Assembly (NCBI GenBank): GCA_028716565.1
Contig: JAQUPL010000001.1
Location: 409,476-473,475, forward strand
Direction: 5' to 3'
DNA from: Candidatus Omnitrophota bacterium
GTDB lineage: Bacteria > Omnitrophota > Gorgyraeia > Pluralincolimonadales > Pluralincolimonadaceae
Length of the DNA stretch: 64,000 bases
Part shown: positions 8,932-57,171 of the stretch, piece by piece
How the letters are laid out: each line of letters opens with the position of its first letter
How positions within the stretch are numbered: the first letter of the stretch is position 1
The notes under the pieces: generated by a model
Told to the model about the DNA's origin: nothing
What the model saw: the letters and a program-made list of their open reading frames with translations, nothing else
Database searches by the model: none
Program-made: the position numbers and the translations under genes

Positions 8932-9752
8932 TTGCTCTTATGCCCCCAGCAAACCCAACCGGCCGTATCCTTCATTCTCGAAATTTTTGTCCCTGTAAAC
9001 CCGGCTTCCTCCAAAAGGCCCAGTAATTCAGACCTGCCAAACCTATGCTCGATGGGCGCGCCGAATCTATCGTAAAGGTCGCCCCTCAACGAGAATGGCC
9101 CCTTTCCAAAATTAAAAGGGACATTCTCGGCTATCTTTTCCGTTGTTTTAAACATTCCCAATATTTTTGAAGGGACGGTAAAAAATAAATAAATGACCGG
9201 CGAAAGCGCATAACACAATAAATAAAGGACCCTCTTGGGAACCCTTGTCGTGAGCATCCTTAGAAGGTTGATCAATTTGATGGCCATATATTTAAAAAAA
9301 TTCTCGGAATGGTCTTCATAGAGATACAGGAAAATAGGCGCGTCTTTCTTTAAAATCCGCGCGATCTCGGCCAAGCCTTTCTTAGGTTCCGGGGTATGGT
9401 GCAAAACGCCGAATGAATAGGCGAAATCGAATATCCCGCCGTTTAAAGGGATCTCTAAAGCGGAACCCTTGATAATCTCAACATTATTAAGCCCGGCTGT
9501 GATCTTTTTTTCCGTAAATACCCCGTCCGAAATATCCATGCTGACTATCCGGACAGAGGGATTGTCCCTTGCCATGATGAAACTGTCAAAACCGCAGCCT
9601 GAGCCCACATCTATGCCGATCTCCCCCCTTACTATCGGCTCATCTATTACGTCCTGCATCCTGTCAAAATGCCATTTTTCTACCGGCTTTAAGACATTCG
9701 GCCTTGTCCATAGAAACCCGTAAGTCCTCCCCGTTATTCCGGACTTATCCAT
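8928..9752 (-). CDS. class I SAM-dependent methyltransferase
   Basis: IDVGSGCGFDSFIMA motif I and Methyltransf_11-like layout. Confidence 0.7.
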   Translation of the reverse strand: MDKSGITGRTYGFLWTRPNVLKPVEKWHFDRMQDVIDEPIVRGEIGIDVGSGCGFDSFIMARDNPSVRIVSMDISDGVFTEKKITAGLNNVEIIKGSALEIPLNGGIFDFAYSFGVLHHTPEPKKGLAEIARILKKDAPIFLYLYEDHSENFFKYMAIKLINLLRMLTTRVPKRVLYLLCYALSPVIYLFFTVPSKILGMFKTTEKIAENVPFNFGKGPFSLRGDLYDRFGAPIEHRFGRSELLGLLEEAGFTGTKISRMKDTAGWVCWGHKSK

Positions 9753-11350: not shown

Positions 11351-12481
11351 ATGAAGATATTATTTATTGCAGAGCCTTTGACCTCACATACCCAAAAGTG
11401 GCTGCGTTTTTTGGGCGAAGCGGGACATCAAATTTATGTGTTATCTTATCATAACAGGTATGCCAATACAATTAAAAATGTCTCTGAAATAGCCCATTTT
11501 GAGCCCGTCAATAAGAACCCTTTCATTTTCTTAAAATACCTCCTCGAACTTAAAAAGATCGCAAAAAGAATAAAGCCGGATGCGCTGACATGCCACTATG
11601 CCCTTGGAACGCCAGGCTTATTAGCGGCGCTCTCCAGTTTCCATCCCCAAATGATAACTATTTTGGGGGGCATAGACATATACGGCCATAGATCTACGAA
11701 TTGGCTAAGATATTTAATACATAATAAACTAATGGCGAAATTTATCTTCAAAACAAGCGATATGATAATCGTCGGCTGTAAAGACCACAAACAACATTTG
11801 CTTGAAAACGGCGTACCCGGCGAAAAAATAGTCGTTATCATGGGCGATATCGGCTTAGGCGTTGACTTAAAGATGTTCAATAACAGGTACGATACCACAC
11901 AGATAAAAAGAGACCTGGATCTAACGGGTAAATTCGTGGTTTTTTGCCCCAGAAGGCTGGTTGCCTATACCAATGTGGAGCTGCTGGTAAAGTCGATCCC
12001 GTTATTAAAGGACAAAATACCCAATATCGTTTTAATGTTGCATACTTATGTCGCAGACGCCAAATATCTGGACTATATCAAAGAGCTTACCCGTAAGACC
12101 GGGATTGAAAACAATGTGGTCTTCACGGAAGAAAGGGCTTATGAAGAAATGCCCCTTCTTTATTGCGCCTCGGATTGTACCGTATCTATCTCCTCTTTCG
12201 ACGGCACGCCCTCAAGCATAGCAGAATCGATGGCCTGCAGAATCCCGGTAATAGCCTATGATATCACTTCTATCCGCGAATGGATAAAAGACGGCCAAAG
12301 CGGGATACTCATCAAAAAACTGGATCCGGAAGAGCTATCTAATGCCATTCTCAAGATCTATTCCGATAAAAAGGAGACGGAAAAAATCATTGAAAATGCG
12401 GCAAACTTTGTAGAGAAAAATCTGGACATGGAAAAATGCAAAAAAACTCTCCTGGATATATACCAAAAGATAAAGGCCTAA
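11351..12481 (+). CDS. glycosyltransferase family 4 (only plus-strand gene in the window)
   Basis: 376 aa, GT-B GT4-like, with a C-terminal E-x7-E-like region. Confidence 0.6.
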   Translation: MKILFIAEPLTSHTQKWLRFLGEAGHQIYVLSYHNRYANTIKNVSEIAHFEPVNKNPFIFLKYLLELKKIAKRIKPDALTCHYALGTPGLLAALSSFHPQMITILGGIDIYGHRSTNWLRYLIHNKLMAKFIFKTSDMIIVGCKDHKQHLLENGVPGEKIVVIMGDIGLGVDLKMFNNRYDTTQIKRDLDLTGKFVVFCPRRLVAYTNVELLVKSIPLLKDKIPNIVLMLHTYVADAKYLDYIKELTRKTGIENNVVFTEERAYEEMPLLYCASDCTVSISSFDGTPSSIAESMACRIPVIAYDITSIREWIKDGQSGILIKKLDPEELSNAILKIYSDKKETEKIIENAANFVEKNLDMEKCKKTLLDIYQKIKA

Positions 12482-16181: not shown

Positions 16182-17378
16182 TCAGGTCAGCCTTCGGTAG
16201 ATCATGCTGTATTTATCGATCCCCTGCTCAAGCGAAAAATATTCTTTCGCGGAGGAGACACACTTCTTCCTGAGGCCTTCACTTACAGGTAATAATCCCG
16301 ATGCCTTCACTGCGGCTTCTTCGATCCCTCCGGGGCCTGAAAGATCGGCGACCACGCCTACGTTTTCCCTGTTTATCACCTCTTCCGTATCGCCGATGCC
16401 GGAATTGATCACTACCGGCAGGCCGCAGGATAAGCTTTCGGCAAATTTTATGGGGGAGCAGCCCGCCGAGGAGAGCCGGCGCTTATAGAACATTATTGAC
16501 AGGGCCGAGGAGGATAAGGCAAGCGGAATATCCTTGCGGGATAGACCGGTTACCGCAAAATCATGCCTGTCTATGCCGTGTCCCAAAATAACGCCCTCGA
16601 CCTCCCCGGCCGCGGAATTCGTGACCAGCCAGAAATAGGCGCCGCGGATCTTTTCCTTTAAGGCCTTAAAAAAAAGCGCCATCCCATCCAGGTCGTAAAA
16701 CGTCCCGGTGCTTCCTAAATATATTAAAACGGGCCTGTTCATTGCGTCACCGGGCAGGATATCCCCCCGCGGTTTCGGACCAAAGAACCCGGTATCAACG
16801 CAGCACGGGATGACCGTGATCGCGGCCCCGGGGAAATCCTTCTTCAGGGACCTCTCCGCCGACCCGGCCAGGACGACTATCTCATCGCTTCCTTTTATAA
16901 GCATCCTCTCTATCTTCTTGAATAACGCATAGACCGGGCTGCCTTTCTCCCAGGCACCTGCGTCGACTTTTTCGTCCGGCCAAAAACCCCTCATGTCAAA
17001 TATTAATCTTTTCCCGGCCACCCGCTTAAGAAAGAGCCCTATCAGCGCAGGGATATATCCCCTTGCGTGCACGGCCCCGACATCGCCCTTTCGTATACTT
17101 GATAACGCCGAACAAGAACCCTTTATAATGTCATAAACAGTGGCCGGGATCGCGGGTGACCTGTGGTATTTTAACGGTCCCCAGGTTATGCCGTTCTTTT
17201 CCAGCTCCGCCTTGACCTCCTCCCGGCCCTTCCCTGCGCCCATTCTTTCCTTCTTCTCGAAACTGATGACGGAGATGCCGAATCCCCTGTTTGACAATCC
17301 CTTGAGATACGGCAAGACCTGAGATTGGGCTACCGGGTCCATCAGGCCGTCATAAGTGATATACAGGATCTTCTTCAT
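16182..17378 (-). CDS. glycosyltransferase family 4
   Basis: 398 aa, GT-B, Glyco_trans_4 N-domain and GT1-type C-domain. Confidence 0.65.
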   Translation of the reverse strand: MKKILYITYDGLMDPVAQSQVLPYLKGLSNRGFGISVISFEKKERMGAGKGREEVKAELEKNGITWGPLKYHRSPAIPATVYDIIKGSCSALSSIRKGDVGAVHARGYIPALIGLFLKRVAGKRLIFDMRGFWPDEKVDAGAWEKGSPVYALFKKIERMLIKGSDEIVVLAGSAERSLKKDFPGAAITVIPCCVDTGFFGPKPRGDILPGDAMNRPVLIYLGSTGTFYDLDGMALFFKALKEKIRGAYFWLVTNSAAGEVEGVILGHGIDRHDFAVTGLSRKDIPLALSSSALSIMFYKRRLSSAGCSPIKFAESLSCGLPVVINSGIGDTEEVINRENVGVVADLSGPGGIEEAAVKASGLLPVSEGLRKKCVSSAKEYFSLEQGIDKYSMIYRRLT

Positions 17379-18802
17379 GAACCCCGGTTATCTGCCCGTT
17401 GTCTTGTAAGGGCGTACGCCGCAAATATAAAAGCGACGGGTATGAACATGTCTTTATGCCGGAAAGCCGTCCCGATATTGCTTTCGAAAAGAGCGGCAGG
17501 CAGGATAAGCACCAAGAGTAAAGCCGTGAGCGTAAGCGAGGTATACTTATCCTTCTTCAGGAAAAGCAACCATCCCGTTACGGTAAACGGGGCCATTAAA
17601 TACCAATAAATGACCTGCGGATAAAAAGGCAGGAAGCTCAGGCTCCAGTTCCCGAACGGGAACGGTGCAAAGAAAAAATACAAGATCGCTTTTAGGATAG
17701 TCGCAAGGTATCCGAAAGAAAAGACATCTCCGGGCGACAGCTTACCCTGCTGGTAGACCAGATCCGAGTATATCCTGTAATTTGTCTGAGAAGGATGGTA
17801 TGCCCCGCCCGAAACTACCTGGGCAAGGTTAATTCGGGCAATGAAATTAGCGGTATTTACGATCTTTGAGGTTATTGTCGTCCTATCCGCAAATACAAAC
17901 GCTAAGATAAAATATACGGCGAAGATCAAAGATACCCTTAGGATAGTGCTTTTCCCTACCTTAAGCGCTTTTAGAAGGGCGAATACAGAAACCACGCCCA
18001 ATCCTGCCAACAATGATATTGATAACTTAGTCCTGAAGAGGTTCGATAGATATATAAAAAGCAGGGCCCAGAATATATATTTAAACTTCTTTTCCGTGAT
18101 CAGCTTGACAAGGAATAATAAATAAGCCAAAAGCAAAAAATTACTGACGCTGTCGCGCAAGCCGGTGACAGACCAGTAGAAAATAGACGGGAAGAACGCA
18201 AAAATTACGGCGGCGATACGCGAGGGCTTCTCCTCTCCAAAGAGCCGGCGGGAGATCAAATACACAAGAATAATGCTTAAGCAGCAAATAAGGCTGTTGG
18301 TCATTTTAGCCGCGACCGGCGCATAACCGAGCCACGCATAAAAAACGCCCAACCCAAAAACATTACTGTCGAATTGGTATCCCCCGAGGTCGGGCAGCCG
18401 GTTGTCATGGAAGTACCGCGTCTTATCAAGCATCCTGTCCAAGAACGGGTCCCTGGCCCTGGCAAGGTTTTCTTCCGCGGGATTATCCTTCAACAAATGA
18501 GAGATATAAAAGGCGTTAACATTGTAGACTGCGGCGTCAGGCTGGGTATCTCCTCCCCAGAAAGGAGGCTCGAGGCCTACATTATAATTGACCAGGCACA
18601 TTGCCGCCCTGAGGATAAAACTTATGATGAAAAGTTTTATCAGGAAACTTGAGGATTCTTTTTTAAAAAATAGTTTTATTGCGAGCAGGGACGCCAAAAA
18701 AAGGGACAGGACGAATAAACCGGCGGTATAGAACGTCAAAATAAAGCCGAGGACGATCCCCAGTAAAATATATGAGAATACCGCTATTTTATTCAAGATC
18801 AT
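17375..18802 (-). CDS. polytopic membrane protein, GT-C (ArnT/PMT, GT39/83)-like or Wzy-like
   Basis: At least 10 TM segments. YLISRRLFGEEKPSRIAAVIFAFFPSIFYWS resembles the ArnT/PMT loop region. Confidence 0.4.
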   Translation of the reverse strand: MILNKIAVFSYILLGIVLGFILTFYTAGLFVLSLFLASLLAIKLFFKKESSSFLIKLFIISFILRAAMCLVNYNVGLEPPFWGGDTQPDAAVYNVNAFYISHLLKDNPAEENLARARDPFLDRMLDKTRYFHDNRLPDLGGYQFDSNVFGLGVFYAWLGYAPVAAKMTNSLICCLSIILVYLISRRLFGEEKPSRIAAVIFAFFPSIFYWSVTGLRDSVSNFLLLAYLLFLVKLITEKKFKYIFWALLFIYLSNLFRTKLSISLLAGLGVVSVFALLKALKVGKSTILRVSLIFAVYFILAFVFADRTTITSKIVNTANFIARINLAQVVSGGAYHPSQTNYRIYSDLVYQQGKLSPGDVFSFGYLATILKAILYFFFAPFPFGNWSLSFLPFYPQVIYWYLMAPFTVTGWLLFLKKDKYTSLTLTALLLVLILPAALFESNIGTAFRHKDMFIPVAFIFAAYALTRQRADNRGS

Positions 18803-19755
18803 TTGCCCTTTGCTTTATAGAGCGAGATTATTTCCGCATCCGTCACGGTTTTATCGCTTTTTCTCCCGAGAAAATAAAACCCTCCCGCCGCGTCGCCGGA
18901 AGATGCCTTTTTTACGAGGTAAAAATCTAAGTATTTGATCCAAAAGAACGCGAAAATAGATAACGTACTTAATATCTTCTTGATGAACGGGGAATCGGTA
19001 AAACTCATGAAAAAATACCTGAGGCTCCACGCCAAGGCGCTGGCAGGCCCGCCGGCTACGCCCCTTTTTATCTCCTCGAAATTCCTGAAAAGCCTCCTGT
19101 GCCCCAAATCAGTGAACCTCGTAAAATCATACCTGCCCATATGGACTTGCTGCATAAAAGGGACTTCGCTATACACAAGCCCTTTCGGTCTCAAGATGCG
19201 GTATATCTCGCTTACGCATCTGTGAGGGTCCGTGACATGTTCGAGCACGGCCTGCGCAATTATCCCGTCAAGGGAAGAATCGGCGAACGGCAGGTTGTGC
19301 GCGTCGCAAATTATTTGCGTCCGCGGGCCGAAAGAAACGTCGCTCTCGATGAGCATTATTTTGTCATTTTTGGCGATCTCCGCCAGGCCCGAGCCCAAAA
19401 CTCCTCCCCCGATGACCAATATCGCGGGCCTCGCCGCGGAATTACATGCCTCCTTGATGAATTTTTTGAAATTCCTTTTGCTGTAAATATTGAGAGTAAG
19501 CTCCGGGGTGACCCTGCTCCATATCTTCCTCAGGAACCCTTTATTAAAGCCGCTTAATTCGATGGTAGTCGAAGATCTGCCCAGAAAATCCTTTATCCTG
19601 AATAAACTTTTGTCCTCATTTATCAGTACCGGGATGCCGTCGACCACCGGGTATTTCCTGTGGCACTTATTACAAGTAAAGTCCCCTTCGCCGAATGACA
19701 GGTCCCCCAAACAGCCCGGGCAAGCCAATTTATCCCTCAACTCTTCATTTAACAT
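18799..19755 (-). CDS. SAM-dependent methyltransferase with N-terminal Trm112-like zinc ribbon
   Basis: CPGC...CNKC zinc ribbon followed by VIGGGVLGSG and a Methyltransf_11-like core. Confidence 0.6.
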   Translation of the reverse strand: MLNEELRDKLACPGCLGDLSFGEGDFTCNKCHRKYPVVDGIPVLINEDKSLFRIKDFLGRSSTTIELSGFNKGFLRKIWSRVTPELTLNIYSKRNFKKFIKEACNSAARPAILVIGGGVLGSGLAEIAKNDKIMLIESDVSFGPRTQIICDAHNLPFADSSLDGIIAQAVLEHVTDPHRCVSEIYRILRPKGLVYSEVPFMQQVHMGRYDFTRFTDLGHRRLFRNFEEIKRGVAGGPASALAWSLRYFFMSFTDSPFIKKILSTLSIFAFFWIKYLDFYLVKKASSGDAAGGFYFLGRKSDKTVTDAEIISLYKAKGK

Positions 19756-21063
19756 CTACCAAAGCCCTATCTTTTGGAATATGGACCTGAAGAACACTTT
19801 TGTTTCATATGAGGCCGCATAAAAACATACGTTCAACATAAAGTAACCGCTTATCAATAGGCCGGGAAAAATCTTATTCCTGGACCTGCGGATAAAATGG
19901 AAAATGCCTGCGGCGCCGATCATGATAATATACGGTTCAATAGGCAGGCGGAACCTCGGCGAACCGTAGAACACCAAAGAAACGCAAAAAGAATAGATAA
20001 TAGGCAGATAGACAGGAGCCAACTCCCAGGACCTTTTGGAATTAACAAATATGCCTAAGATGAAAAACGGCATAATGAACGCATACATGTAATTATACAC
20101 GCCGTTACCCAGGATCTCCCAATCGAAGACGCTCCAGAAATAAACGGTCTTTAATACCTCCAGTTTTAGGACACGCAGCGGGTTGTTTTTTATATATTTT
20201 AGCGCCTCTTTTGCCAGGAAATCGCTTTGCGCAGCCTCGGATCCTAATGACCTGGACTTTTCCACGACTTCATCACTGGCGATAAAGCCGTATAATTTCC
20301 CCTCTCTGGGCACATATGAGCTATAAAGCCCTATTCCCATCGTGGTGGAAATGGGGATAAAACGATGGGTCACTTTCCAGTTCCTGACGGTCCAGGGAGC
20401 TATCGGCAGTATAAAAAAAGTCAGCAGGATGGCCGCACTTATAATATACTTTTTGACGCTGCGGGCATGGGAGAGAAAGATCTTTCCCATCACCAGAAGG
20501 ATAAAAAAGGGAAGCAGGACTATAACAGAGCGCGTGAGCGAAGCTATCCCCAACGCGGCCCCGCAAAAGGCCAAATTCCCATAACCGCCGTTCTGGATAA
20601 ACCTTAAAAGGAAGAATATGATCGAGATAAGCAAAAAGGTATAGAGGAGCTCAGTTATCATAAGCCCGGTGGTCCTGATAAATGCCGGGTAAAAACAACA
20701 GATCAACGCGCCCAAAACGGCTGTTTTGGCGTCGAATAATCGCCTTGCTGTCATAAAAATTATTACGCATGTCAACGCGCCTATGATCGCCTGGATAACT
20801 TTAACGGCCGCGTAGTTATTGCCGAATATATGATATAGCGACGCCAGGAAAAAAGGATAAAACGGCTCTTTGAAAGTAGTAGGCTTCCCGTCCACGCTGA
20901 ATCCCTTGCCCTCGAGGATGTTCCCGGCAAGGCCGTTGTAATAAAGGGAATCCGGCGTAAGGACCTGTCCTTCGGAAAGGGCTGCATAGAGCCGCGGCAG
21001 CAGAGCCACGGCAAAGATCGCCAGGGCGATCAATATTGTTCTTTTCATTTCATGATAACCCAA
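19756..21063 (-). CDS. GT-C family membrane glycosyltransferase (GT39/GT83, ArnT/PMT-like)
   Basis: MTARRLFDAKTAVLGALICCFYPAFI motif, multi-TM. Probable start MKRTIL at about 21048. Confidence 0.6.
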   Translation of the reverse strand: MGYHEMKRTILIALAIFAVALLPRLYAALSEGQVLTPDSLYYNGLAGNILEGKGFSVDGKPTTFKEPFYPFFLASLYHIFGNNYAAVKVIQAIIGALTCVIIFMTARRLFDAKTAVLGALICCFYPAFIRTTGLMITELLYTFLLISIIFFLLRFIQNGGYGNLAFCGAALGIASLTRSVIVLLPFFILLVMGKIFLSHARSVKKYIISAAILLTFFILPIAPWTVRNWKVTHRFIPISTTMGIGLYSSYVPREGKLYGFIASDEVVEKSRSLGSEAAQSDFLAKEALKYIKNNPLRVLKLEVLKTVYFWSVFDWEILGNGVYNYMYAFIMPFFILGIFVNSKRSWELAPVYLPIIYSFCVSLVFYGSPRFRLPIEPYIIMIGAAGIFHFIRRSRNKIFPGLLISGYFMLNVCFYAASYETKVFFRSIFQKIGLW

Positions 21064-22436
21064 TGGAAGAACCTCTTCAGGAGGAACTTGAAATGCCGCG
21101 GAGACTTGATCGCCAATATGTTCTTTATCATTATTCCCGGCCGCATATAAAATCTTAAGAAAGCTTCACGTTGCAAAGATTTGACCTGTTTTTGGTTCAA
21201 GCCGTCTCCCGCGTACGGGGCGCTCATAAAATAAAACCTGTCCCAGTCAACACCGCCCAATTTCCCCTCTGAAGCCAACTCCTTATAACTGGCCGTGCCG
21301 GGAAAAGGCAGGTACGTAAAATAATTCGCCCTGATCAAACCCAGATCAAGCGAAAAACGGATCGTTTTCCTGATGTCCTCTTCTTTCTCGCCCGGGAAGC
21401 CAACGATAAAAAATCCCGCCACATCTATCTTAAACCGGCGGATCATGTCTATCCCCTTCCGTATCTTATCGGTGGTGGTCCCTTTCTTCATTAAGGCAAG
21501 TACCCTGTCTGAGCCTGATTCTATCCCTAATGAAATAAGGTAAAGGCCGCTTTTTTTCATCAGCACAAGCATTTCTTCGTCCAGGCAGTCTATGCGGACC
21601 CCGTTCGGGGTCGCCCAGCTTATACCCAAGTGCAAATCGGCGAGTTTCCGCAGCAATTCCTTTGCGTAGGCCCTGTCAAAAGTAAAGTTATCGTCTATAA
21701 TATGGAACTCACGTATGCCATGCCTATCATACAGATACTTGATCTGCCCTAGGATGAAATCTACGCTGTGCTTCCGTATCTTCTTCCCCCCTATTATGTT
21801 ACCCGCGCAAAACGTGCAGGAGAAAGGGCAACCGCGGGTGACTATTATAGGCGCTATGGGGAACTTCCTGAAAACGGCGCCGTGCTGGCATTCGGGATAT
21901 TCCTCGGGCCGGATAAGGTCCCATGCCGGCATTCCCAAGCTGTCCAGGTCTTCGACGAATATCTGGGGATTTATGCGCACACGGCCGTTCTCCCTCCACC
22001 CTAACCCGGGGATATCCGAAAGGTCCCGGGGTCCTTTTTTCCCAAGCCTGTCGAGCAGAATAGGCAGGCCTTTTTCGGCTTCCCCGACGAAGATGAAGTC
22101 CAAAGGAGCGCCGAAATACTTAATGCTCTCTTCGGGGGCGGCAGAAGGATGCGGCCCGCCCAGGACAGTTATCAAGCCCGGCTCCAGGTTTTTGCATCCT
22201 TCCAGGGCCTCCTTGACGAATTTCAGGTCGAACGTATAGCACTGGAAACCGACGACATCGGGCTTTGCCTCTTTGACCATACGGATCAAGGCATCCGCCT
22301 TCATGCCTTTTTTAATGCAATCAAGTATCGTCACATTATGCCCTGCCTTCCTGCACGACTCGGCCAAATAGCCCAGGCCCAGGGAAGGCTGGATATGATC
22401 GCTGAGGTTATAAGGTTTTACCAGTAAGATGTTCAT
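21045..22436 (-). CDS. B12-binding (class B) radical SAM protein
   Basis: RGCPFSCTFCAGN CxxxCxxC and an N-terminal B12-binding-like domain. Confidence 0.75.
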   Translation of the reverse strand: MNILLVKPYNLSDHIQPSLGLGYLAESCRKAGHNVTILDCIKKGMKADALIRMVKEAKPDVVGFQCYTFDLKFVKEALEGCKNLEPGLITVLGGPHPSAAPEESIKYFGAPLDFIFVGEAEKGLPILLDRLGKKGPRDLSDIPGLGWRENGRVRINPQIFVEDLDSLGMPAWDLIRPEEYPECQHGAVFRKFPIAPIIVTRGCPFSCTFCAGNIIGGKKIRKHSVDFILGQIKYLYDRHGIREFHIIDDNFTFDRAYAKELLRKLADLHLGISWATPNGVRIDCLDEEMLVLMKKSGLYLISLGIESGSDRVLALMKKGTTTDKIRKGIDMIRRFKIDVAGFFIVGFPGEKEEDIRKTIRFSLDLGLIRANYFTYLPFPGTASYKELASEGKLGGVDWDRFYFMSAPYAGDGLNQKQVKSLQREAFLRFYMRPGIMIKNILAIKSPRHFKFLLKRFFHWVIMK

Positions 22437-22440
22437 CTGT

Positions 22441-23913
22441 TTATGTCCACAGGTAATTCCAATGGGATTTCACGAACATGACTAAAGATTCCTTGATGCG
22501 TATATAGGCATTCCTGGGAACGGAAAGGAACGGTATAGAGATGATCCTAGTGAAGCCGTTGATAGGCATCCTCTTGATCACGGGGTGCAAAAACGCCGGC
22601 ATCCTGGTGAGAAAAGGGATCAATACTTGCAACCTCAAGGCCTCTTTCTCGTCTATATCCCTGATAAGCGACCCCTGTTTATACCCTCCCTCGCCGTTAC
22701 AGATCTTTTCGTATTCGCCTTCCTTTATGAACCCGCGTTCAGCGCAGAAATCCGCCAACTCTGTTTTCGGGAACGGATAAAAAATCGACACGATGGTCCC
22801 GTCAGGTTTTATCTTCCTGTTCAACTCGTAAGTCTCCCACATCTGTTCGGTCGTCTCCGTCGGGAAACCCACTATGTTCAATGTGCAGAACTTGATCCCT
22901 GCCTCTTTCAGGACCTTGGCCGTATCAATAATATCGTCGTTGCTCATGTTCCTTTTTAATAATTTATACCTTACGTCCTCGCTCCCCGACTCCAGGCCGA
23001 TATCCACATAGATACACCCCGCCTCCTTCAGGAGCAGCATAATGTCTTTCTTGACATTCTTTGGGTGCACCAGGACCTTAAAAGGCAAGTTTATCTCCTT
23101 CTTATACCTGCCGGCAAAGTCCCTGATCCAAGCGTCGTTTATCGTAAATACATCGTCGTAAAAGAAGACCTCCTTGATGCGGTACCTGGACTTGAAATAT
23201 TTAAGCTCCTCTATCACCCTTCCGACGCTCCTGCGGCGGGTATAGGAATGGCCCGGCTGGTTCAACAGTTTCCTGTAGTAAGAATTAAAACAATACGTGC
23301 ATTGGTACGGGCATCCCCTGCCGGTCATGACATAAAGCCTGTCCGAAAAACATCCGTACCTCCTGAACATATCCTTGTCCGGGAAAGGCAGGGAGTCCAG
23401 GTCCTGCATCAGGGGCCTGGACGGGTTCCGGACGATCTCCCCGTCCTTCTTGAACCAGATGTTCTTTATCGAGTGATCGATCTTCCCATTTTGCATGCTA
23501 TTCGCCAATTCTACCAGGGCCTCTTCGCCTTCGCCGACGCAAATCATGTCTATATCCGGGTTTTTTATGACGAACTCGGGCAGAATGGTGGGATGGAGGC
23601 CTCCCACAATGATAGGCACGGCCATTTCTTTTTTCAGCAGGGAAGCCATTTTGGAGACCCAAGGGTATAAATTGGTCAAACAAGAGAACGCTATGAGGTC
23701 GGGTTTATACGCCTTCGCCTTTTTTATCATTTTACCGGAAACGTCGAAATACCTTTCAATGATATTAAATTTATACTCCACGTCACCCGAACCGGGGTCG
23801 AAGAGCAGCTCGGTGTCGTGCCCCGCCCTCTTCAGGGAGCTAGAAAGATATTCGATCCCCATCCATTCCGCGTTCCTGTGGAAAAATAAGACCTTCATCC
23901 CCTCTTCCTGCAT
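22441..23913 (-). CDS. B12-binding (class B) radical SAM protein
   Basis: RGCPYQCTYCFNSYY. Probable start MKVLFF at 23898, forming an ATGA overlap with the upstream stop. Confidence 0.75.
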   Translation of the reverse strand: MQEEGMKVLFFHRNAEWMGIEYLSSSLKRAGHDTELLFDPGSGDVEYKFNIIERYFDVSGKMIKKAKAYKPDLIAFSCLTNLYPWVSKMASLLKKEMAVPIIVGGLHPTILPEFVIKNPDIDMICVGEGEEALVELANSMQNGKIDHSIKNIWFKKDGEIVRNPSRPLMQDLDSLPFPDKDMFRRYGCFSDRLYVMTGRGCPYQCTYCFNSYYRKLLNQPGHSYTRRRSVGRVIEELKYFKSRYRIKEVFFYDDVFTINDAWIRDFAGRYKKEINLPFKVLVHPKNVKKDIMLLLKEAGCIYVDIGLESGSEDVRYKLLKRNMSNDDIIDTAKVLKEAGIKFCTLNIVGFPTETTEQMWETYELNRKIKPDGTIVSIFYPFPKTELADFCAERGFIKEGEYEKICNGEGGYKQGSLIRDIDEKEALRLQVLIPFLTRMPAFLHPVIKRMPINGFTRIISIPFLSVPRNAYIRIKESLVMFVKSHWNYLWT

Positions 23914-24596
23914 ATCAATATGATAGATAGGCCTATAGGAGGCCCTATCAGGTTCTCGAAAAAATCCAGCAACGGAGTCAAGAAATTAAACATGCTCAAC
24001 AGCCTGGTGGAGATCTTTTCTTTTTTCAAGACCTTCCCGTTGAAAAACCACCCGATCAGTCCGAAAAAATTAAAATACATCTTTTTGTCGATGGTAAAAC
24101 CGCATTTTTCTATCATTTCCGATACCTCTGACAGGCTGTACCTCCTGTAGTGACCTGCCGCCCTGTCAAGGCTGCAGTATAAAGATTGGAAGGCGGGTAC
24201 CAACAAGATAAGGGTGCCCTCTTTGTTTAATATAGAGTTGAAATTATTCAAAACCGCCTCGTCATCCTTTATGTGTTCGAGGGTATTGACGCAAACGACC
24301 GTATCCAGGTTATTTCCCGAAAGCTTTGTTATCGACGGGTCGGTTAAGTCGTATCTTAGGAATTTTACGTTCGGATTATCCGAAAACCTGCTCCTGCATT
24401 CATCCAGCATGTCGGAGTCATTGTCTACTGCCAGCACCAGCTGTTTGCCCGACATGTAAGAAGTCAGGTTCCCGGTCCCGCATCCCGCCTCCAGGATCCT
24501 CTCTCCGAGGTATGGCTCGATCTTTTTGTAAAACCAGGACTTCAAACGCTCGAGCCTTGACATGAAAGTAAGCGTATCAAAAACGACTTTGGGCAT
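23895..24596 (-). CDS. class I SAM-dependent methyltransferase
   Basis: ILEAGCGTGNLTSYM motif I. Confidence 0.7.
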   Translation of the reverse strand: MPKVVFDTLTFMSRLERLKSWFYKKIEPYLGERILEAGCGTGNLTSYMSGKQLVLAVDNDSDMLDECRSRFSDNPNVKFLRYDLTDPSITKLSGNNLDTVVCVNTLEHIKDDEAVLNNFNSILNKEGTLILLVPAFQSLYCSLDRAAGHYRRYSLSEVSEMIEKCGFTIDKKMYFNFFGLIGWFFNGKVLKKEKISTRLLSMFNFLTPLLDFFENLIGPPIGLSIILICRKRG

Positions 24597-25292
24597 TTAT
24601 TTCCCTACCCTGTATTTTACGAGCACGTATAATGCCTTTAAGCCATCCCGCCATGAGATCTTTTTGCCTTCCTGGTAATCTCTCGGAACATAGGAAATAG
24701 GGACCTCGTATATTTTTACCCCTTTTCTCAACAATTTTGCGGTTATTTCAGGCTCTATTTCGAACCCCCTGGCAGATAAGTCTATTCCGTCCAATATCTC
24801 TTTTTTGATGACCTTATAACAAGTCTCCATATCTGTAAGCCTTGCCCCGTAAAGAAGCATCACCATAAAATTAAGAAATTTATTTCCTATAAAATGCGTC
24901 AGATAAAATACCTTTTTGCAATGGAAAAGGTCTTTTCTGTTCAGGAACCTCGAACCATATACAACATCCGCTTTGCCTTCTTTGATGGGTTTCACGAGCT
25001 CCGGATAATCCCCCGGATCATATTCTAAGTCCGCATCCTGGAAGATTATTATGTCGCCGGACGCATTTTTGAGGCCTGTACGGATAGCCGCGCCCTTTCC
25101 GCGGTTTTTATCATGAGAATATACCTTCACCCCTTTAAGGGATAGGCTTTCCAGGATCTTCATGGTATCGTCCTTAGAAAAATCATCGACGATGATTATC
25201 TCGTCGACGACATCGCTATCCGTGACTTTTTTCAAGATCTCTTTTATTGTCCTTGCTTCGTTATAAACAGGGATAATGACGGATACCTTCAT
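24597..25292 (-). CDS. GT2 polyprenyl-phosphate glycosyltransferase (DPM1/ArnC/GtrB-like)
   Basis: VSVIIPVYNEARTI, DDFSKDDT, QDADLEYDP (DxD) and 231 aa, typical of the Dpm1/ArnC family. Confidence 0.75.
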   Translation of the reverse strand: MKVSVIIPVYNEARTIKEILKKVTDSDVVDEIIIVDDFSKDDTMKILESLSLKGVKVYSHDKNRGKGAAIRTGLKNASGDIIIFQDADLEYDPGDYPELVKPIKEGKADVVYGSRFLNRKDLFHCKKVFYLTHFIGNKFLNFMVMLLYGARLTDMETCYKVIKKEILDGIDLSARGFEIEPEITAKLLRKGVKIYEVPISYVPRDYQEGKKISWRDGLKALYVLVKYRVGK

Positions 25293-25293
25293 T

Positions 25294-26472
25294 TCAATCC
25301 ATGCCTCCGCGGTATATCGATTCTATTTCCGGGATAAGTTTCCCGGAGGAATATCTCTCCGTGAACCGGTTGATCGCTGCCTCAGCGAATCTCTTCCTCA
25401 TTTGCGGATCCCCGGCAAGCTTAAGTATGGCATCAGCCAATGCCTCAGGGTCTTTAGGAGCGACCAAAAAACCTGTTTTGCCTTCAACTACCAGTTCACT
25501 TACTCCCCCCACATCGGCGGCTACTACAGGTTTGCCGTAAGCCATACCTTCAAGCAGGACCAATGGCGCGCCCTCTGTCAGGGAAGAAAGCACAAGTATA
25601 TCGATGCGGCACATGATATCGGATATATCCTTAAACGCGCCGGTCAACTCTGTATTTGCGGCCAGGCCGTTTATTTCGATGAGGCTGATTAGCTCGTTTT
25701 TCAGATAGCCCTGGCCCGCGATAATGAATTTGATATTACTGCGTCGTTTATTTATCAACTCCGCGGCCTTTAAAAAAAATACGTGCCCCTTTTCCGGGGT
25801 AAGCCTGCCGACGATGCCTACGCTTACATCCCCCTTCCCCTCAACGGGCACTATTGCATTCTTTCCGGGAGAAGGGAGCATGGTCGGTACGACGTATAGC
25901 TTGTCCGTAACCGCGGCGCCGAGGCCTACCATGTGCCGTTTCATAGATTCCGAGAGGGCTATTATAGCATCACATCGCCTCCAGAAAAACCTCATAACCG
26001 ACAACTGGGAAGGCGAAAGCCAATCCCCGATAAGGGACGTTTCGGTGTAGATTATCCTTTTTACGCCGGCCATCCTGCCGGCAAGGACAGCCATCTTGGT
26101 CTGGTTCTGGTATAGATGGACGACATCCGGCCTTTTTTTCGCAAAGGCGGCAAATAATTTTAAAGCCGCCAGGCATTCGTTAGCCAGCCGCCTTAACCTG
26201 TCGACGGCATCGCCGCTTTTCCTGAAAACGCCGGCCTCTTCCGCGGGCCCGCCGACTTTTTTCCTCGGACCGTCCCCGGTGACGGCCCGGTTATATAGCC
26301 TATGGACCTTTATCCCTTTTCCGGCCAACCTGTCCGCTATCGGGCCGTCGTCGAAGAAACAATAGACTCTTACCGAGTGCCCGTTGCCGGCCAACCCTGA
26401 CGCCAGAAATTCAACCTGCCTCTCCCCGCCGCCGTAATTCAGCGCGGGAGTCACTATAGCTATATCCATCAC
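25294..26472 (-). CDS. glycosyltransferase family 4
   Basis: EGAPLVLLEGMAYGKPVVAADVGG motif. Confidence 0.7.
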   Translation of the reverse strand: MMDIAIVTPALNYGGGERQVEFLASGLAGNGHSVRVYCFFDDGPIADRLAGKGIKVHRLYNRAVTGDGPRKKVGGPAEEAGVFRKSGDAVDRLRRLANECLAALKLFAAFAKKRPDVVHLYQNQTKMAVLAGRMAGVKRIIYTETSLIGDWLSPSQLSVMRFFWRRCDAIIALSESMKRHMVGLGAAVTDKLYVVPTMLPSPGKNAIVPVEGKGDVSVGIVGRLTPEKGHVFFLKAAELINKRRSNIKFIIAGQGYLKNELISLIEINGLAANTELTGAFKDISDIMCRIDILVLSSLTEGAPLVLLEGMAYGKPVVAADVGGVSELVVEGKTGFLVAPKDPEALADAILKLAGDPQMRKRFAEAAINRFTERYSSGKLIPEIESIYRGGMD

Positions 26473-27401
26473 GGCGTATTAAGGTACATATCCATAAGGG
26501 ATGTGCTTATCGGGATCTCCGGTTTCCATCCCGTCAATGCCTTGATCTTGGTAATATCCGCTGTCTGCGCCGGTATGTCTTTCTTCATGACCTTGTCTTT
26601 TCGCTGCTCGACCGAAAATTTCCTCCCGCAAAGGCCGGAAAGTATCTTTACGATCTCCCGCACCGAATGCGGTTTTCCGCTGCCTACGTTAAATATCTCT
26701 CCCGCGACCGGTTTTTTGCATGCCATAAGCATCCAATAAGCCCTGACCGCGTCCCTAACATCTATAAAATCCCTGCTCGTATGAAGGTTTCCTATCAGCA
26801 ACCTGCCTTTCCTGCTCCCCTGCAGACCCATATCCTTGATCTGGTTGATGATCGAACCGCAAACCAGTTGTGATGTCTGGCCCGGCCCTATCAGGTTAAA
26901 AGGCCGCGCGACGACTATGTCCAAGCCGGATCCTTGATGGTATTGCAACGCCAAAAGCGTCTGAGCCGCCTTACTGAGGCCGTAAGCCGTTATAGGCGCC
27001 AAAGGGCCTGTCTCTTTCAATGGTATATTCCGTCTGCTTATCCCATATTCGCCGGAAGTGCCGATAACCAGTATCCGCGGAGATAACCCATTCTCGATCA
27101 CAGCGTCAAAGATGTTCTTCGTCGCAAGTACGTTATATCTCAGCAGGTCTTCATGATCCTTGCTGAAAAGCAATGCCGACAGGTGCAAAATATAATCGGG
27201 GCGGATATCGCCTATGATCTTCGAGATCTTCCCCTTGTCGAGTAGGTCTGACTTTATGAATTTAAAATCCTCCGGACTTCCCGGGAAACACTTTTTATCT
27301 ACCCCGAAGATCCTTACCGTCCCGGGCCTCATCTTGCCGGCGAAATCGACAAAATACCTTCCCGTAAAACCGCTGACTCCCGTGACTAAGATTTTTTTCA
27401 T
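26469..27401 (-). CDS. NAD-dependent epimerase/dehydratase (GDP-4-keto-6-deoxyhexose reductase-like SDR)
   Basis: VTGVSGFTGRY Rossmann motif and YGLSKAAQ (YxxxK). Confidence 0.6.
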   Translation of the reverse strand: MKKILVTGVSGFTGRYFVDFAGKMRPGTVRIFGVDKKCFPGSPEDFKFIKSDLLDKGKISKIIGDIRPDYILHLSALLFSKDHEDLLRYNVLATKNIFDAVIENGLSPRILVIGTSGEYGISRRNIPLKETGPLAPITAYGLSKAAQTLLALQYHQGSGLDIVVARPFNLIGPGQTSQLVCGSIINQIKDMGLQGSRKGRLLIGNLHTSRDFIDVRDAVRAYWMLMACKKPVAGEIFNVGSGKPHSVREIVKILSGLCGRKFSVEQRKDKVMKKDIPAQTADITKIKALTGWKPEIPISTSLMDMYLNTP

Positions 27402-28367: not shown

Positions 28368-29300
28368 TCATCCTTGGGCTGATTTCTTCATTAATTCCAG
28401 CCCTTCTTTTACGGTCAAAAGCTTTATCTTCAGTTCTCTTTCGATCTTGGCGGTGTTATAGCTCGTGTTGCTCGGACGAGGCGCCAAATCTTTGAATGCG
28501 GCGCTTGAAACGGAGCTGATGAGGGCGCGGTTTAACCCAAAGATATCCGCCACAAGAAGGGCAAACTCATACCGGTTCAAGATATCTTTCCCGGCTATAT
28601 GATAAAGCCCCTCCTTGCCCGATCTTATAAGGGCCCATATTATCTCGGCGCAACTGGTATTTAACAACGGATTTTCAAAGACATCGTTCACCATCTTCAC
28701 CCCTTCGCCGCGGCCAAGCTTCTGGATCAACCAGGTAACGGGATTAGACCGCTCATTTTTGTTATTCCAGCCATACATCAGTATCGGCCTGACGATGAGG
28801 TGCTTCAAGCCGCTCTCCCTGACGATCTTTTCCCCTTCCAGTTTCATCTCGCCGTATTTGTTGATGGGCGAGGGCTTATCGTCCTCCGAATAGGGGGCGG
28901 ACTTGCCGTCAAAAACCGCGTTTGTGGATATGAAGGCCATCTCCGAGCCGTATTCCCTGCATAATTCCGTAATGACCTGCGTGCCGAATACGTTTGAATT
29001 CCGGGCAACATCGTAATTTCGCTCGCAATAATCTACGCTTGCGGCGCCGGCCGTGTGTATGACGACCTGGGGCCTTGCCTTGTCAAAGAGACTGCGCATT
29101 TCGTCCTTTTTGCAGATATCGGCCTTATGGTAGGCGACATTTGCCCCGTCTTGCATGTTATAGGCGCCGATATAGGCGGCACCTATCTTGGCATCCCCGC
29201 CGGTCTCGATAAGCGCTTTTCCCAGCAATCCCGTGCCGCCGGTGATCAATATCCTGTTTTTTCCCATTATCCTTCCCTTAACCCGTACCATGCGTAACAT
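28368..29300 (-). CDS. dTDP-4-dehydrorhamnose reductase (RmlD)-like SDR
   Basis: ILITGGTGLLG, VVIHTAGAASVDYCE, NAVFDG...PYSEDD...NKYGEMK are RmlD-like. Probable true start MGKNRIL at about 29267. Confidence 0.6.
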   Translation of the reverse strand: MLRMVRVKGRIMGKNRILITGGTGLLGKALIETGGDAKIGAAYIGAYNMQDGANVAYHKADICKKDEMRSLFDKARPQVVIHTAGAASVDYCERNYDVARNSNVFGTQVITELCREYGSEMAFISTNAVFDGKSAPYSEDDKPSPINKYGEMKLEGEKIVRESGLKHLIVRPILMYGWNNKNERSNPVTWLIQKLGRGEGVKMVNDVFENPLLNTSCAEIIWALIRSGKEGLYHIAGKDILNRYEFALLVADIFGLNRALISSVSSAAFKDLAPRPSNTSYNTAKIERELKIKLLTVKEGLELMKKSAQG

Positions 29301-31005
29301 GCTTTAAGAAGACTAAATAATCCGGCGGGGAGAAAAATTCCTTAATATTAAATTCGGGGTACTCCTTAGTCCCAAGCGCGGCAACAAGCTTCTCCTTGAA
29401 ATCGTCCGCAAAAGAAACCTCTAAATAGTCCCTTATAAAATACTCGAGCCCCAAAGAAATACCCTCGGGGATGTAATACAGCGTTTTAACGCCCAGTGAG
29501 AGGGCTTCAAACACTACCGTTGACGCGGAGGTGACCAGCAAAAAACAATCCTCCAGCAGTCCACTCATGTCTTTTCCGGTAAATTCGCAATTTTCATATC
29601 CGGAGAACTCTTTGGCAAGTAAGACTGAGCCCCATGAATACGGGTGGGGCTTGATAAGGAACTTATATCCGTTGAATTCACCGCTAGCCAGGCACGCGAG
29701 GACCTGCCTTTGTAAAGATACTGTTACCTCGGGGAAAATAGGAAGGGCAACGACGATATTATTCGTCTTCCTCCCGTTACGGTCCTTGCCGCGAAGAAAG
29801 AGGTGCTGAAGCCGGGTAGCGCCGGCCTCCTCCACCCGGCAGGCCCTATAGCGATCTTTTAAAAAATCGAGCCACTTCTTCCCGGCAGCCAGTATCACCT
29901 CCGGCAGGGGCGCATCCTTCTCGAAAACCGAAACGTGGTAATCCAGCCAATTGACCGGAATCGTCATATGCTGGTAGGCGATCTTCTTTACCTTCTCACC
30001 GAAAGCAAGGTTGAGCATCTTCTCCCACGGCTGGTTCTCGAACGGATATATCATAGAAGTCCCCGGAGCCAGCTTTTTTGCAAGGTTCCTGTAACAGTAA
30101 TAATAGAAAAGGTACGCCTGGAAGCCGTTCGTCTCGTTCTCGTTCTTTTCTTCGTTCTTCAGGAGAAAATCCAGCAATTCCTTGTCTTTGATACCGCTGT
30201 CTTCGGAGGGCCCGCAGTCAATAGACATCCTGGTAAAGAATACGCGCAAAAAGTCTGCCAATCTTAAATATGGCAGGAGAAGCGCGATATCCTTAAAATT
30301 TTTTTTCAATTCAATCGCGTGTTTACGCTCTACAAAAAGCGGCGTTACCCTGAAGACACCACGGCCGTTCTTTCTTAAAAAACTTTCCAACCCCCCGAAG
30401 TATGGGTCATTGTACTCCGGAAGCCGCGAGAAGACCCTGTCGTCGATAAAGCTGTGCAGCAAGGTATCGCCGGCTTTAGGCCCGGCGGAAGTAAAGAACA
30501 ACCTGAAAAATAGCCAATGGAAAAATATGTCAAAGAACGCCCGGGCGCCCTTGATCTTTTTCAGGGCCGTCTTTAGATAGTCCGGAGCCACCGGCCCGCA
30601 GACCTCTGTATTCGGAAGCCGGAGCCGCTTAAGATTCGCCAAAAGCCGGATGTCGTCCGCCAAAAATACATGGCTGCCTTTGGAAGCCGCATAGGATCCT
30701 ATGAGCTTGATATATACATATTGGTGGAACATGGCCATCTGGGAAGTCGACTTAGATGCCACCCTGCTCGAATACCACAGTACCCTGTCCTTTTGGAGCG
30801 TCGAGACCTTTCCTATATAGTCGATGTAATTATCCCTGACCAGAGAGACAATCCGTTCTATCCCCTTGCCCACAAATACCCTTTTCTGCCTGCCGAGGAC
30901 GGCCTCGGCCGGGCAAGATCCTTTATCGACGCCCAGGTAAGACCAGGACAAGCCTTTTAATTTTTCTATATTACGTCTATCTTCCGGAAAGACAATGTAT
31001 ACCAT
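29278..31005 (-). CDS. hypothetical GT-B-like protein with KPHP motif (TagF/Glyphos_transf or KpsC/KpsS Capsule_synth-like)
   Basis: 575 aa. FLIKPHPYSWG followed by LLVTSASTVVFEALSLGVKT, the pattern shared by CDP-glycerol glycerophosphotransferases and capsule beta-Kdo transferases. Confidence 0.35.
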   Translation of the reverse strand: MVYIVFPEDRRNIEKLKGLSWSYLGVDKGSCPAEAVLGRQKRVFVGKGIERIVSLVRDNYIDYIGKVSTLQKDRVLWYSSRVASKSTSQMAMFHQYVYIKLIGSYAASKGSHVFLADDIRLLANLKRLRLPNTEVCGPVAPDYLKTALKKIKGARAFFDIFFHWLFFRLFFTSAGPKAGDTLLHSFIDDRVFSRLPEYNDPYFGGLESFLRKNGRGVFRVTPLFVERKHAIELKKNFKDIALLLPYLRLADFLRVFFTRMSIDCGPSEDSGIKDKELLDFLLKNEEKNENETNGFQAYLFYYYCYRNLAKKLAPGTSMIYPFENQPWEKMLNLAFGEKVKKIAYQHMTIPVNWLDYHVSVFEKDAPLPEVILAAGKKWLDFLKDRYRACRVEEAGATRLQHLFLRGKDRNGRKTNNIVVALPIFPEVTVSLQRQVLACLASGEFNGYKFLIKPHPYSWGSVLLAKEFSGYENCEFTGKDMSGLLEDCFLLVTSASTVVFEALSLGVKTLYYIPEGISLGLEYFIRDYLEVSFADDFKEKLVAALGTKEYPEFNIKEFFSPPDYLVFLKHVTHGTG

Positions 31006-48837: not shown

Positions 48838-48844
48838 ATGTTTC

Positions 48845-49807: not shown

Positions 49808-49808
49808 G

Positions 49809-51502: not shown

Positions 51503-51504
51503 CC

Positions 51505-56019: not shown

Positions 56020-56041
56020 TTTTCACTCCCGTGTTTGCATG

Positions 56042-57154: not shown

Positions 57155-57171
57155 TTTAAATCCTCTCCCGT

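Follow-up and report, generated by a model that had tools for sequence, protein, structure and literature searches.

Class B radical S-adenosylmethionine proteins linked to polyprenyl-phosphate glycosyltransferases in an Omnitrophota surface-glycan locus

What would class B radical S-adenosylmethionine (SAM) proteins do in a locus for surface-glycan synthesis? This question was raised by a 64-kb stretch of DNA from a metagenome-assembled genome (MAG) of an Omnitrophota bacterium (hereafter, the window), a glycan locus on the minus strand in which two such genes, rS-A and rS-B, lie side by side among genes for glycosyltransferases (GTs) and methyltransferases. The best reading of this region is that it is the tailoring core of a lipid-linked monosaccharide branch in a large Omnitrophota surface-glycan operon. 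The two proteins would tailor a monosaccharide linked to polyprenyl phosphate, and a GT-C protein would then transfer it on the periplasmic side; judging from the sequences, we give this scheme a chance somewhat short of even. The arrangement suggests an undescribed chemical tailoring of cell-surface sugars.

The gene rS-A (positions 21045–22436, minus strand) encodes a protein of 463 amino acid residues with RGCPFSCTFC at residues 201–210 (CxxxCxxC at 203–210), and rS-B (22441–23913, minus strand) encodes one of 490 residues with RGCPYQCTYC at residues 199–208 (CxxxCxxC at 201–208). The cluster cysteines were invariant in alignments of 52 sequences for rS-A (C203, C207, and C210) and 54 sequences for rS-B (C201, C205, and C208). 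The window contains two further class B genes, rS-C (9755–11260, minus strand; 501 residues) and rS-D (34156–35649, minus strand; 497 residues). The Pfam gathering cut-offs are 29.5 bits for Radical_SAM (PF04055) and 32.1 bits for B12-binding (PF02310); rS-A, rS-B, rS-C, and rS-D scored 97.9, 98.2, 59.7, and 88.4 bits with the former and 74.4, 70.3, 38.0, and 49.1 bits with the latter, respectively (E 1e-9 to 1e-28). In rS-A and rS-B, the CxxxCxxC motif is located inside the PF04055 match, which assigns them to the radical SAM superfamily, and a Rossmann-type B12-binding domain precedes the barrel at the N-terminus, which is the class B layout. Their AlphaFold2 models were confident (pLDDT 91.0 for rS-A and 92.9 for rS-B). 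The best Foldseek matches of the rS-B model were MgmA, TsrM, AprD4, CysS, OxsB, and TokK, and both models matched these six proteins across both domains. An earlier note on this DNA, made from the sequence alone, had described two adjacent class B proteins with these lengths and motifs, N-terminal cobalamin-binding-like domains, and two more such genes elsewhere in the locus, and had named a search with the two Pfam profiles as one check. All four proteins passed that check, and coordinates, motifs, Pfam matches, and models agree with the description. The possibilities that the N-terminal domains lack a B12-binding fold or that the proteins are not radical SAM proteins are contradicted by the PF02310 matches and by folds that match solved class B enzymes.

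The four proteins are distant from each other. rS-B, rS-C, and rS-D were each only 22–25% identical to rS-A (rS-C, 22%), and on these alignments we regard the four as separate class B lineages. The term paralogous, which had been applied to them, holds at the superfamily level and fails for close paralogs. A recent duplication as the origin of the tandem pair was ruled out by the same identities. No curated NCBIfam cut-off was reached by rS-A, rS-B, rS-C, or rS-D; the class B equivalogs compared were HpnJ, BchE, Sden_1168 P-methylase, ApyD, MgmA, PhpK, HpnR, BzaD, AprD4, KedN5, and TsrM-type. The top scores of rS-A were 178 bits for Sden_1168 P-methylase (cut-off 575), 162 for ApyD (750), 152 for HpnJ (578), 149 for BchE (481), and 132 for MgmA (360), and those of rS-B were 137 (cut-off 578) and 125 (cut-off 750). 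The window proteins have the N-terminal Rossmann B12-type domain and CxxxCxxC TIM barrel of the class B C-methyltransferases MgmA/QCMT (9CCB), TokK, CysS, and TsrM, whereas their identity to MgmA, TokK, CysS, and TsrM is 17–24%, with no curated family cut-off reached. They also differ in context, which is a polyprenyl-phosphate-sugar cassette in the window and antibiotics, ribosomally synthesized and post-translationally modified peptides (RiPPs), and methyl-coenzyme M reductase for the characterised C-methyltransferases. The basic, aromatic, conserved C-terminus of rS-A (RHFKFLLKRFFHW) was considered as a membrane-binding helix; its hydrophobic moment was moderate and not above that of other segments, and the idea was not used.

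The partners of the pair connect it with carrier-linked sugars. In the direction of transcription, the genes follow the order GT2, MT233, rS-B, rS-A, GT-C, Trm112-MT, and GT-C. The small GT2 protein (GT2s; 24597–25292, minus strand; 231 residues) consists of a catalytic domain only and is a DPM1/AglJ/PpgS/ArnC-like polyprenyl-phosphate glycosyltransferase, with a PF00535 score of 130 bits. Its three best PDB matches were all polyprenyl-phosphate glycosyltransferases, namely Pyrococcus furiosus DPMS (5mlz; E 9e-25), ArnC (E 9e-16), and GtrB, and its top NCBIfam models were AglJ, PpgS, and ArnC, each below cut-off. GT2s contains the motif DADLEYDP, which we take to resemble the DADL(Q/S)xxP signature of DPM1, GtrB, and ArnC. 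No transmembrane (TM)-like segment was found in GT2s, which thus lacks the C-terminal TM helices that GtrB, ArnC, and archaeal DPMS have; human DPM1 and mycobacterial PpgS are likewise without a TM segment.

The gene downstream of rS-A encodes GT-C 435 (19756–21063, minus strand), a polytopic PMT_2/ArnT-like protein with a PF13231 score of 69 bits and seven TM-like segments. Its start overlaps the rS-A stop, and its family matched the PMT_2-positive cluster c14 with an hhalign probability of 97.7%. A second polytopic PMT_2-like protein, GT-C 475 (17375–18802, minus strand), has ten TM-like segments, scored 28.3 bits with PF13231 (cut-off 26.1), and matched the GT-C 435 family with a probability of 98.5%. 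The DPM1-like GT2 and the GT-C transferase that had been named as neighbours are thus both present, together with this second GT-C. At the level of sequence, the window shares with three-component glycosylation systems a GT2 polyprenyl-phosphate glycosyltransferase and a co-encoded GT-C, as in ArnC/ArnD/ArnT, GtrA/GtrB/GtrV, CsbB/GtcA/YfhO, and mycobacterial PpgS/Rv3779.

The whole cassette appears to be expressed together. The window carries about 55 genes, nearly all of which lie on the minus strand and abut or overlap their neighbours; the sole plus-strand gene is a GT4 gene at 11351–12481. From GT2s to GT-C 475, neighbouring genes abut or overlap by 4–19 nt. Since the genes from 26472 down to 17375 abut or overlap and a scan found promoter- and terminator-like sites no more frequent than by chance, we treat them as one transcription unit. 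GC skew was negative in all 2-kb bins of the window.

The principal finding is the gene context shared across the rS-A family. A profile search of 1.84 billion representatives gave 150 top matches, nearly all full-length with about 460 residues, and more than 100 database clusters, all of 459–472 residues, were 59–72% identical to rS-A. A protein identical to rS-A is recorded from a Candidatus Omnitrophica MAG. One genome per GTDB species was scanned, which yielded 80 rS-A loci (50–69% identity), all from MAGs or single-amplified genomes and mostly from Omnitrophota; the other hosts, as labelled by submitters, were Nitrospinota, Planctomycetota/Phycisphaerae, Elusimicrobiota, Dependentiae, Shapirobacteria, and Nitrospirae. 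Open reading frames (ORFs) were called in these loci and clustered. An ortholog of GT2s (about 232 residues, DPM1-like) was located within 3 kb of rS-A in 42 of the 80 loci and was its immediate upstream gene in 32 of 71; 46 loci had any GT2s match in the ±10 kb flanks, and in 42 of these it was within 3 kb. GT-C neighbours were traced by TM counting and hhalign, tblastn being too insensitive. Polytopic proteins, defined by at least seven TM segments and at least 350 residues, accounted for 35% of genes located two positions from rS-A but for 6% at five positions, and 45 of the 54 loci with full flanks had at least one within five genes. The polytopic neighbour clusters, including those of the two window GT-Cs, link to PMT_2-positive GT-C families with hhalign probabilities of 95–98%. 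The Pfam-negative 460-residue cluster c4 joins the GT-C superfamily only via c28 (98%), its direct matches to PMT_2-positive families being at 61–67%.

As a control, 80 loci of distant class B relatives (30–48% identity to rS-B) were analysed. A small GT2 was found within 3 kb in six of them, compared with 42 of 80 for rS-A (Fisher p 3e-10), and a polytopic neighbour was found in 15/26 control loci, compared with 45/54 (Fisher p 0.025); both p values are overstated, since many loci are related and not phylogenetically independent. In about 30 Omnitrophota genomes, the canonical operon consists of one or more GT2 genes, the small GT2, rS-A, a 135-residue single-TM protein, an approximately 460-residue polytopic protein, and in some cases a GT-C of about 530 residues, and continues with a GmhB-like HAD protein, an optional SDR, and an MGDG-synthase-like GT. 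In this operon (8051–9854 in L003/L028, with about 28 further loci), the genes for the single-TM and polytopic proteins (clusters c6 and c4), for which Pfam gave zero matches, invariably come after rS-A. Away from glycan islands, locus L005 has a 145-residue protein, a PMT_2 protein, GT2, and the radical SAM protein among fatty-acid oxidation and Mla/Pqi genes, and in a Nitrospirota lipopolysaccharide (LPS)-core locus a PA14-PMT_2 gene directly precedes rS-A. By submitter label, the linkage spans Omnitrophota, Elusimicrobiota, Planctomycetota, Nitrospinota, a 'delta proteobacterium' MAG, and Nitrospirota. This tight, multi-phylum linkage of one highly conserved radical SAM family to a carrier-loading GT2 and a GT-C is notable.

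The tandem arrangement itself is less widespread. The cassette GT2s-(MT)-rS-B-rS-A-GT-C recurs on three other Omnitrophota contigs (L007, L008, and L056), where the small GT2, rS-B, and rS-A are 59–63%, 69–73%, and 59–69% identical to their window orthologs, respectively, and rS-B adjoins rS-A. A homolog of GT-C 435 (37–46% identity) follows rS-A in L008 and L056, and the L007 contig stops just past rS-A. The pair as a conserved unit was nevertheless rejected, as a true rS-B ortholog stands beside rS-A in only one of the 80 species-level loci (L056). Because L056 alone among these loci has this pairing, rS-A is the core component, and rS-B and MT233 are, as predicted from this distribution, accessories that supply additional modifications in part of the Omnitrophota. 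Remoter relatives of rS-B (43–54% identity) occur in Patescibacteria, Promethearchaeota, Nanoarchaeota, and Scalindua; in Scalindua japonica, a 238-residue GT2 is flanked by two of them, with a PMT-type GT-C nearby. The view of the earlier note that four class B genes in one locus are rare needs qualifying, since three or four per locus recur in Omnitrophota and Scalindua (L007, L008, L009, and L056). The stacking of two radical SAM proteins with a methyltransferase in the window locus is also notable. A natural fusion of 1879 residues, P0357 (L170, 2649–8288), has the order B12-radical SAM-MT-GT2-MT-GT2-B12-radical SAM with no internal stop in the standard code, and it shows that these three types of enzyme can function together in a single unit. 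Giant fusions were also observed (P0344, P0352, and P0376; 2096–2331 residues), with four or five radical SAM domains per polypeptide.

MT233 (23895–24596, minus strand; 233 residues) is a class I SAM-dependent methyltransferase with matches to Methyltransf_25, 12, 11, and 23, and the last 19 nt of its gene are shared with the start of rS-B. The radical SAM pair had been placed directly upstream of this gene in the earlier note; this must be reversed, as on the minus strand MT233 precedes both radical SAM genes in transcription. MT233 homologs (40–48% identity) were found within 2.5 kb of rS-A in L056, L011, L026, L082, and L065. Among the three contigs with the recurring cassette, only L056 has the ortholog (48% identity), and it is missing from the cassette in L007 and L008. 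The best NCBIfam match of MT233 was 'corrinoid protein-associated methyltransferase CpaM', at 52.9 bits far below membership (cut-off 180) but intriguing beside two B12-domain enzymes, and its C-terminus is strongly hydrophobic (NLIGPPIGLSIILICRKRG). The other methyltransferase of the operon (Trm112-MT; 18799–19755, minus strand; 318 residues) combines a Trm112 domain (Trm112p, 24.5 bits) with a SAM methyltransferase domain (Methyltransf_11, 50.5 bits) and lies between the two GT-C genes, abutting or overlapping each. It is probably specific to the window locus, because the 80 loci yielded no homolog close to rS-A.

In the pathway that we propose from these neighbours, GT2s would move a sugar from a nucleotide sugar onto polyprenyl phosphate at the cytoplasmic face. 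The cytoplasmic rS-A and rS-B would then modify the lipid-linked sugar at unactivated carbons through reductive SAM cleavage and hydrogen-atom abstraction, rS-A as the universal enzyme of the cassette and rS-B in the variant of the window, with cobalamin-mediated C-methylation as the favoured outcome for rS-A; MT233 would add a conventional O- or N-methyl group. The tailored polyprenyl-phosphate sugar would be flipped across the membrane, and GT-C 435 or GT-C 475 would transfer it on the periplasmic side onto the locus glycan, LPS core, or protein. Such a route matches the logic of ArnC/ArnD/ArnT and of decaprenyl-phosphate arabinose, in which the carrier is loaded, the sugar is modified on the carrier, and a GT-C transfers it; the radical SAM step would take the place of the hydrolytic or redox reaction in ArnC/ArnD/ArnT and in the conversion of decaprenyl-phosphate ribose to decaprenyl-phosphate arabinose. 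ArnD and DprE1/E2 are precedents for altering a sugar while it is on the carrier, and the ribose-to-arabinose route feeds GT-C arabinosyltransferases. We know of no three-component glycosylation system with a radical SAM enzyme. The earlier proposal of C-methylated or otherwise radical-modified sugars, or of a modified lipid carrier, is partly supported as regards sugar tailoring, by the linkage to GT2 and GT-C; C-methylation is the favoured candidate chemistry for rS-A, and carrier modification becomes a minor rival.

The preference for C-methylation over AprD4-like deoxygenation or rearrangement by rS-A is a modest one. Like class B C-methyltransferases, rS-A contains the GGPHP motif and is aromatic where TokK has its lower-axial Trp76; this residue is aromatic in 52 of 52 orthologs (Phe in 45 and Tyr in 7). 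The N-terminal 200 residues of rS-A alone matched the cobalamin domains of 4Q37, TokK, and CysS, whereas AprD4 was not matched at E ≤ 0.1. The N-terminal matches and the aromatic residue are two weak hints of a methylase-type cofactor site. Radical methylases have a hydrophobic residue at the lower face of cobalamin, and the residue is polar in TsrM (Arg69) and OxsB (Asn186) (PMC12931638).

Several alternatives place the enzymes elsewhere or give them other chemistry. It is unlikely, though with an appreciable chance, that the radical SAM proteins act earlier, on a soluble nucleotide-activated sugar, giving for instance a C-methyl-branched or deoxy NDP-sugar, and that GT2 then loads the modified sugar. 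None of the window radical SAM proteins has a TM segment, SDR epimerase/dehydratase genes (cluster 5) are frequent in the conserved operon, and such genes lie two genes upstream in the window (26469–27401); GenK, GenD1, Fms7, AprD4, and Fom3 (on a CMP-linked HEP) also act on soluble substrates. GenK, GenD1, Fms7, and Fom3 are listed as C-methylases (PMC12931638). However, no nucleotidyltransferase or other nucleotide-sugar gene was a consistent neighbour, the tightest linkage was to GT-C proteins and to the GT2 that loads the carrier (directly upstream in 32/71), and the minimal module L005 holds only the small protein, GT-C, GT2s, and the radical SAM protein. We consider it quite unlikely that rS-A occupies the same position in the pathway but is a cobalamin-independent AprD4-like enzyme, a 1,2-diol dehydratase giving deoxygenation, or a rearranging one like HpnJ or OxsB. 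AprD4 is encoded in an antibiotic gene cluster, serves as the 1,2-diol dehydratase in the synthesis of apramycin, and takes a soluble pseudodisaccharide as its substrate. It has the same class B layout but binds no cobalamin (PDB 6FD2; PMC12931638). The sequence similarity to AprD4 is limited to the barrel (residues 163–395), and its NCBIfam model scored 85.6 against a cut-off of 500. HpnJ, a hopanoid-associated class B radical SAM protein, is proposed to catalyse ring contraction in the glucosamine of a lipid-linked sugar, together with the GT2 HpnI. It was among the top NCBIfam matches of all four window proteins with near full-length alignment, and in both cases a GT2 is paired with a radical SAM protein acting on a lipid-anchored sugar, as proposed on the window side. 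In contrast, its scores were 90–152 bits (cut-off 578), the window has no hopanoid genes, and an HpnJ-type carbocyclic product would be unable to serve as a GT-C donor.

The modification of a lipid, either the polyprenyl carrier or the head group or chain of a membrane glycolipid, as by HpnP/HpnR, GrsA/B, and Hgm, seems improbable. HpnP, HpnR, and the ladderane-associated family are class B lipid modifiers (PMC12931638), and GrsA/B and Hgm modify lipids (bioRxiv 10.1101/2023.10.20.563219). The window proteins matched TIGR04072, 'lipid biosynthesis B12/rSAM', at 117–119 bits, and in many canonical Omnitrophota operons an MGDG-synthase-like gene is the third or fourth gene downstream of rS-A. 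Yet every lipid-family NCBIfam score, including that of TIGR04072, was far under its cut-off, the window cassette contains no lipid-synthesis genes, and the MGDG-synthase-like gene, seen at positions +2 to +4 in 16 loci, was less strongly linked to rS-A than GT2s and GT-C were. The enzymes could also modify the acceptor, a protein, a peptide, or LPS core on the cytoplasmic face, which a GT-C would later glycosylate, but this we hold to be very improbable. MgmA, the closest cobalamin-dependent structure, methylates a protein side chain (PMC11796369), the RiPP families ApyD and rSAM_ocin_1 gave partial matches, protein O-mannosyltransferases are among the PMT-type GT-Cs, and in L004 rS-A lies in an LPS-core locus with heptosyltransferase genes. 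The examined loci showed no genes for precursor peptides or of the RiPP type, the RiPP family scores were far under cut-off, and acceptor modification leaves the very frequent direct adjacency of rS-A to the carrier-loading GT2 unexplained.

Tailoring of the carrier-linked sugar by rS-A and rS-B has to be set against several observations. The best structural match of the rS-A model is AprD4, a sugar-diol dehydrating enzyme without cobalamin. Phe69 of rS-A was aligned with TokK Trp76 in a weak pairwise alignment (E 0.013), and in a low-scoring pairwise alignment the equivalent position of rS-B, in distinction from class B C-methyltransferases, is Asn (50 of 54 sequences). As Asn is of the polar type found in OxsB and TsrM, which are not radical methylating, rS-B may do something other than radical methylation. 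An Rfam scan of the window gave zero matches and so no cobalamin riboswitch. Three-component systems have a GtrA/ArnEF-type flippase, and no small flippase gene of the GtrA/ArnEF/GtcA type was present in the operon, where 17375–26472 is fully occupied without a small multi-TM protein; an ABC exporter is encoded 15 kb from the cassette (39619–41445). Among the 52 rS-A loci scored for both features, 12 have a polytopic protein without GT2s and 8 have neither. The P0357 fusion supports general coupling only and not the rS-A family itself, because its radical SAM domains are just about 30% identical to rS-A. Every characterised class B enzyme known to us that modifies a sugar (GenK, GenD1, Fms7, and Fom3) uses a soluble substrate. 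Finally, all members of the rS-A family are from uncultured organisms.

The other class B genes lie in different surroundings. rS-C is followed by a 274-residue SAM methyltransferase (8928–9752). rS-D belongs to a separate block, downstream of KdsB-like and HpaI-like genes, together with a 2-hydroxyacid dehydrogenase, an SDR, a cyclase-family protein, and a HAD phosphatase; L008 repeats the Pfam families of this block in a slightly changed order, and its radical SAM protein is about 30% identical to any of those in the window. The KdsB-like CMP-ulosonic acid synthetase (38089–39626 region, minus strand) scored 308 bits and passed its NCBIfam subfamily cut-off of 255. Its gene lies directly after that of a HpaI/GarL-like class II aldolase, and the two are upstream of a methyltransferase, a hexapeptide acetyltransferase, a 271-residue protein of no known family, and rS-D. 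These KdsB- and HpaI-like genes near rS-D suggest a second, CMP-linked ulosonic-acid pathway that includes a class B radical SAM protein. With a gene of the SPASM/twitch type (62676–63542, minus strand; PF04055 40.8 bits, SPASM 37.3 bits), the radical SAM genes of the window number five; this gene overlaps the start of a DegT aminotransferase gene (61544–62755) and falls outside every curated family, its best score being 84 bits with W_rSAM_matur (cut-off 380).

The remainder of the locus encodes a Wzy_C ligase/polymerase-like protein, a WecA/MraY-family initiating transferase, the ABC exporter, many GT4 and GT2 proteins, and two AsnB-like amidotransferases. A nonulosonic-acid (pseudaminic/legionaminic-like) set at 46385–58576 (minus strand) comprises NeuB, a PseG-like GT28 C-terminal domain, GNATs, a PIG-L deacetylase, a formyltransferase, two DegT aminotransferases, a second CTP_transf_3 cytidylyltransferase, and a HisH/HisF-like amidotransferase pair, with an AsnB-like gene immediately downstream. 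Six minus-strand ORFs of 271–620 residues had no Pfam family above threshold (29278–31005, 41465–43327, 35646–36461, 44673–45824, 47704–48837, and 56042–57154); 29278–31005 and 41465–43327 showed faint DUF6716 and polysialyltransferase-like traces, and the other four gave zero matches. A tRNA scan of the window found none.

Full-text literature searches and a 2026 review (PMC12931638) yielded no polyprenyl-sugar system of the GT2/GT-C kind with a class B radical SAM protein, and full-text searches gave nothing relevant on radical SAM proteins in Omnitrophota glycan synthesis; in a preprint on Omnitrophota, radical SAM appears only among the Pfam modules of giant proteins. More than 220,000 class B sequences are known, and reactions have been established for only a few dozen, most of them in antibiotic, RiPP, cofactor, or lipid pathways (PMC12931638). 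An orphan class B enzyme is unsurprising in itself, because the superfamily is huge and mostly uncharacterised. In its broadest form, which we regard as doubtful, our proposal is that rS-A represents a phylum-spanning family, not recognised before, of cobalamin-dependent radical SAM enzymes acting on polyprenyl-phosphate sugars, that radical C–H functionalisation (C-methylation or rearrangement) is a conserved fourth component of GT2/GT-C systems and a core trait of the Omnitrophota envelope, and that rS-B and MT233 lead to a multiply tailored sugar without a described counterpart. The cassette is compact, with three to five genes, which makes the hypothesis directly testable by heterologous expression. 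If the pathway proposed above holds, it would provide the first class B radical SAM enzyme acting on a carrier-lipid-linked sugar in primary cell-envelope glycan synthesis. C-methyl-branched or otherwise radical-modified surface sugars would then be predicted in Omnitrophota, Nitrospinota, Planctomycetota, and Elusimicrobiota, and the envelope biogenesis of these uncultured groups would be tied to cobalamin availability.

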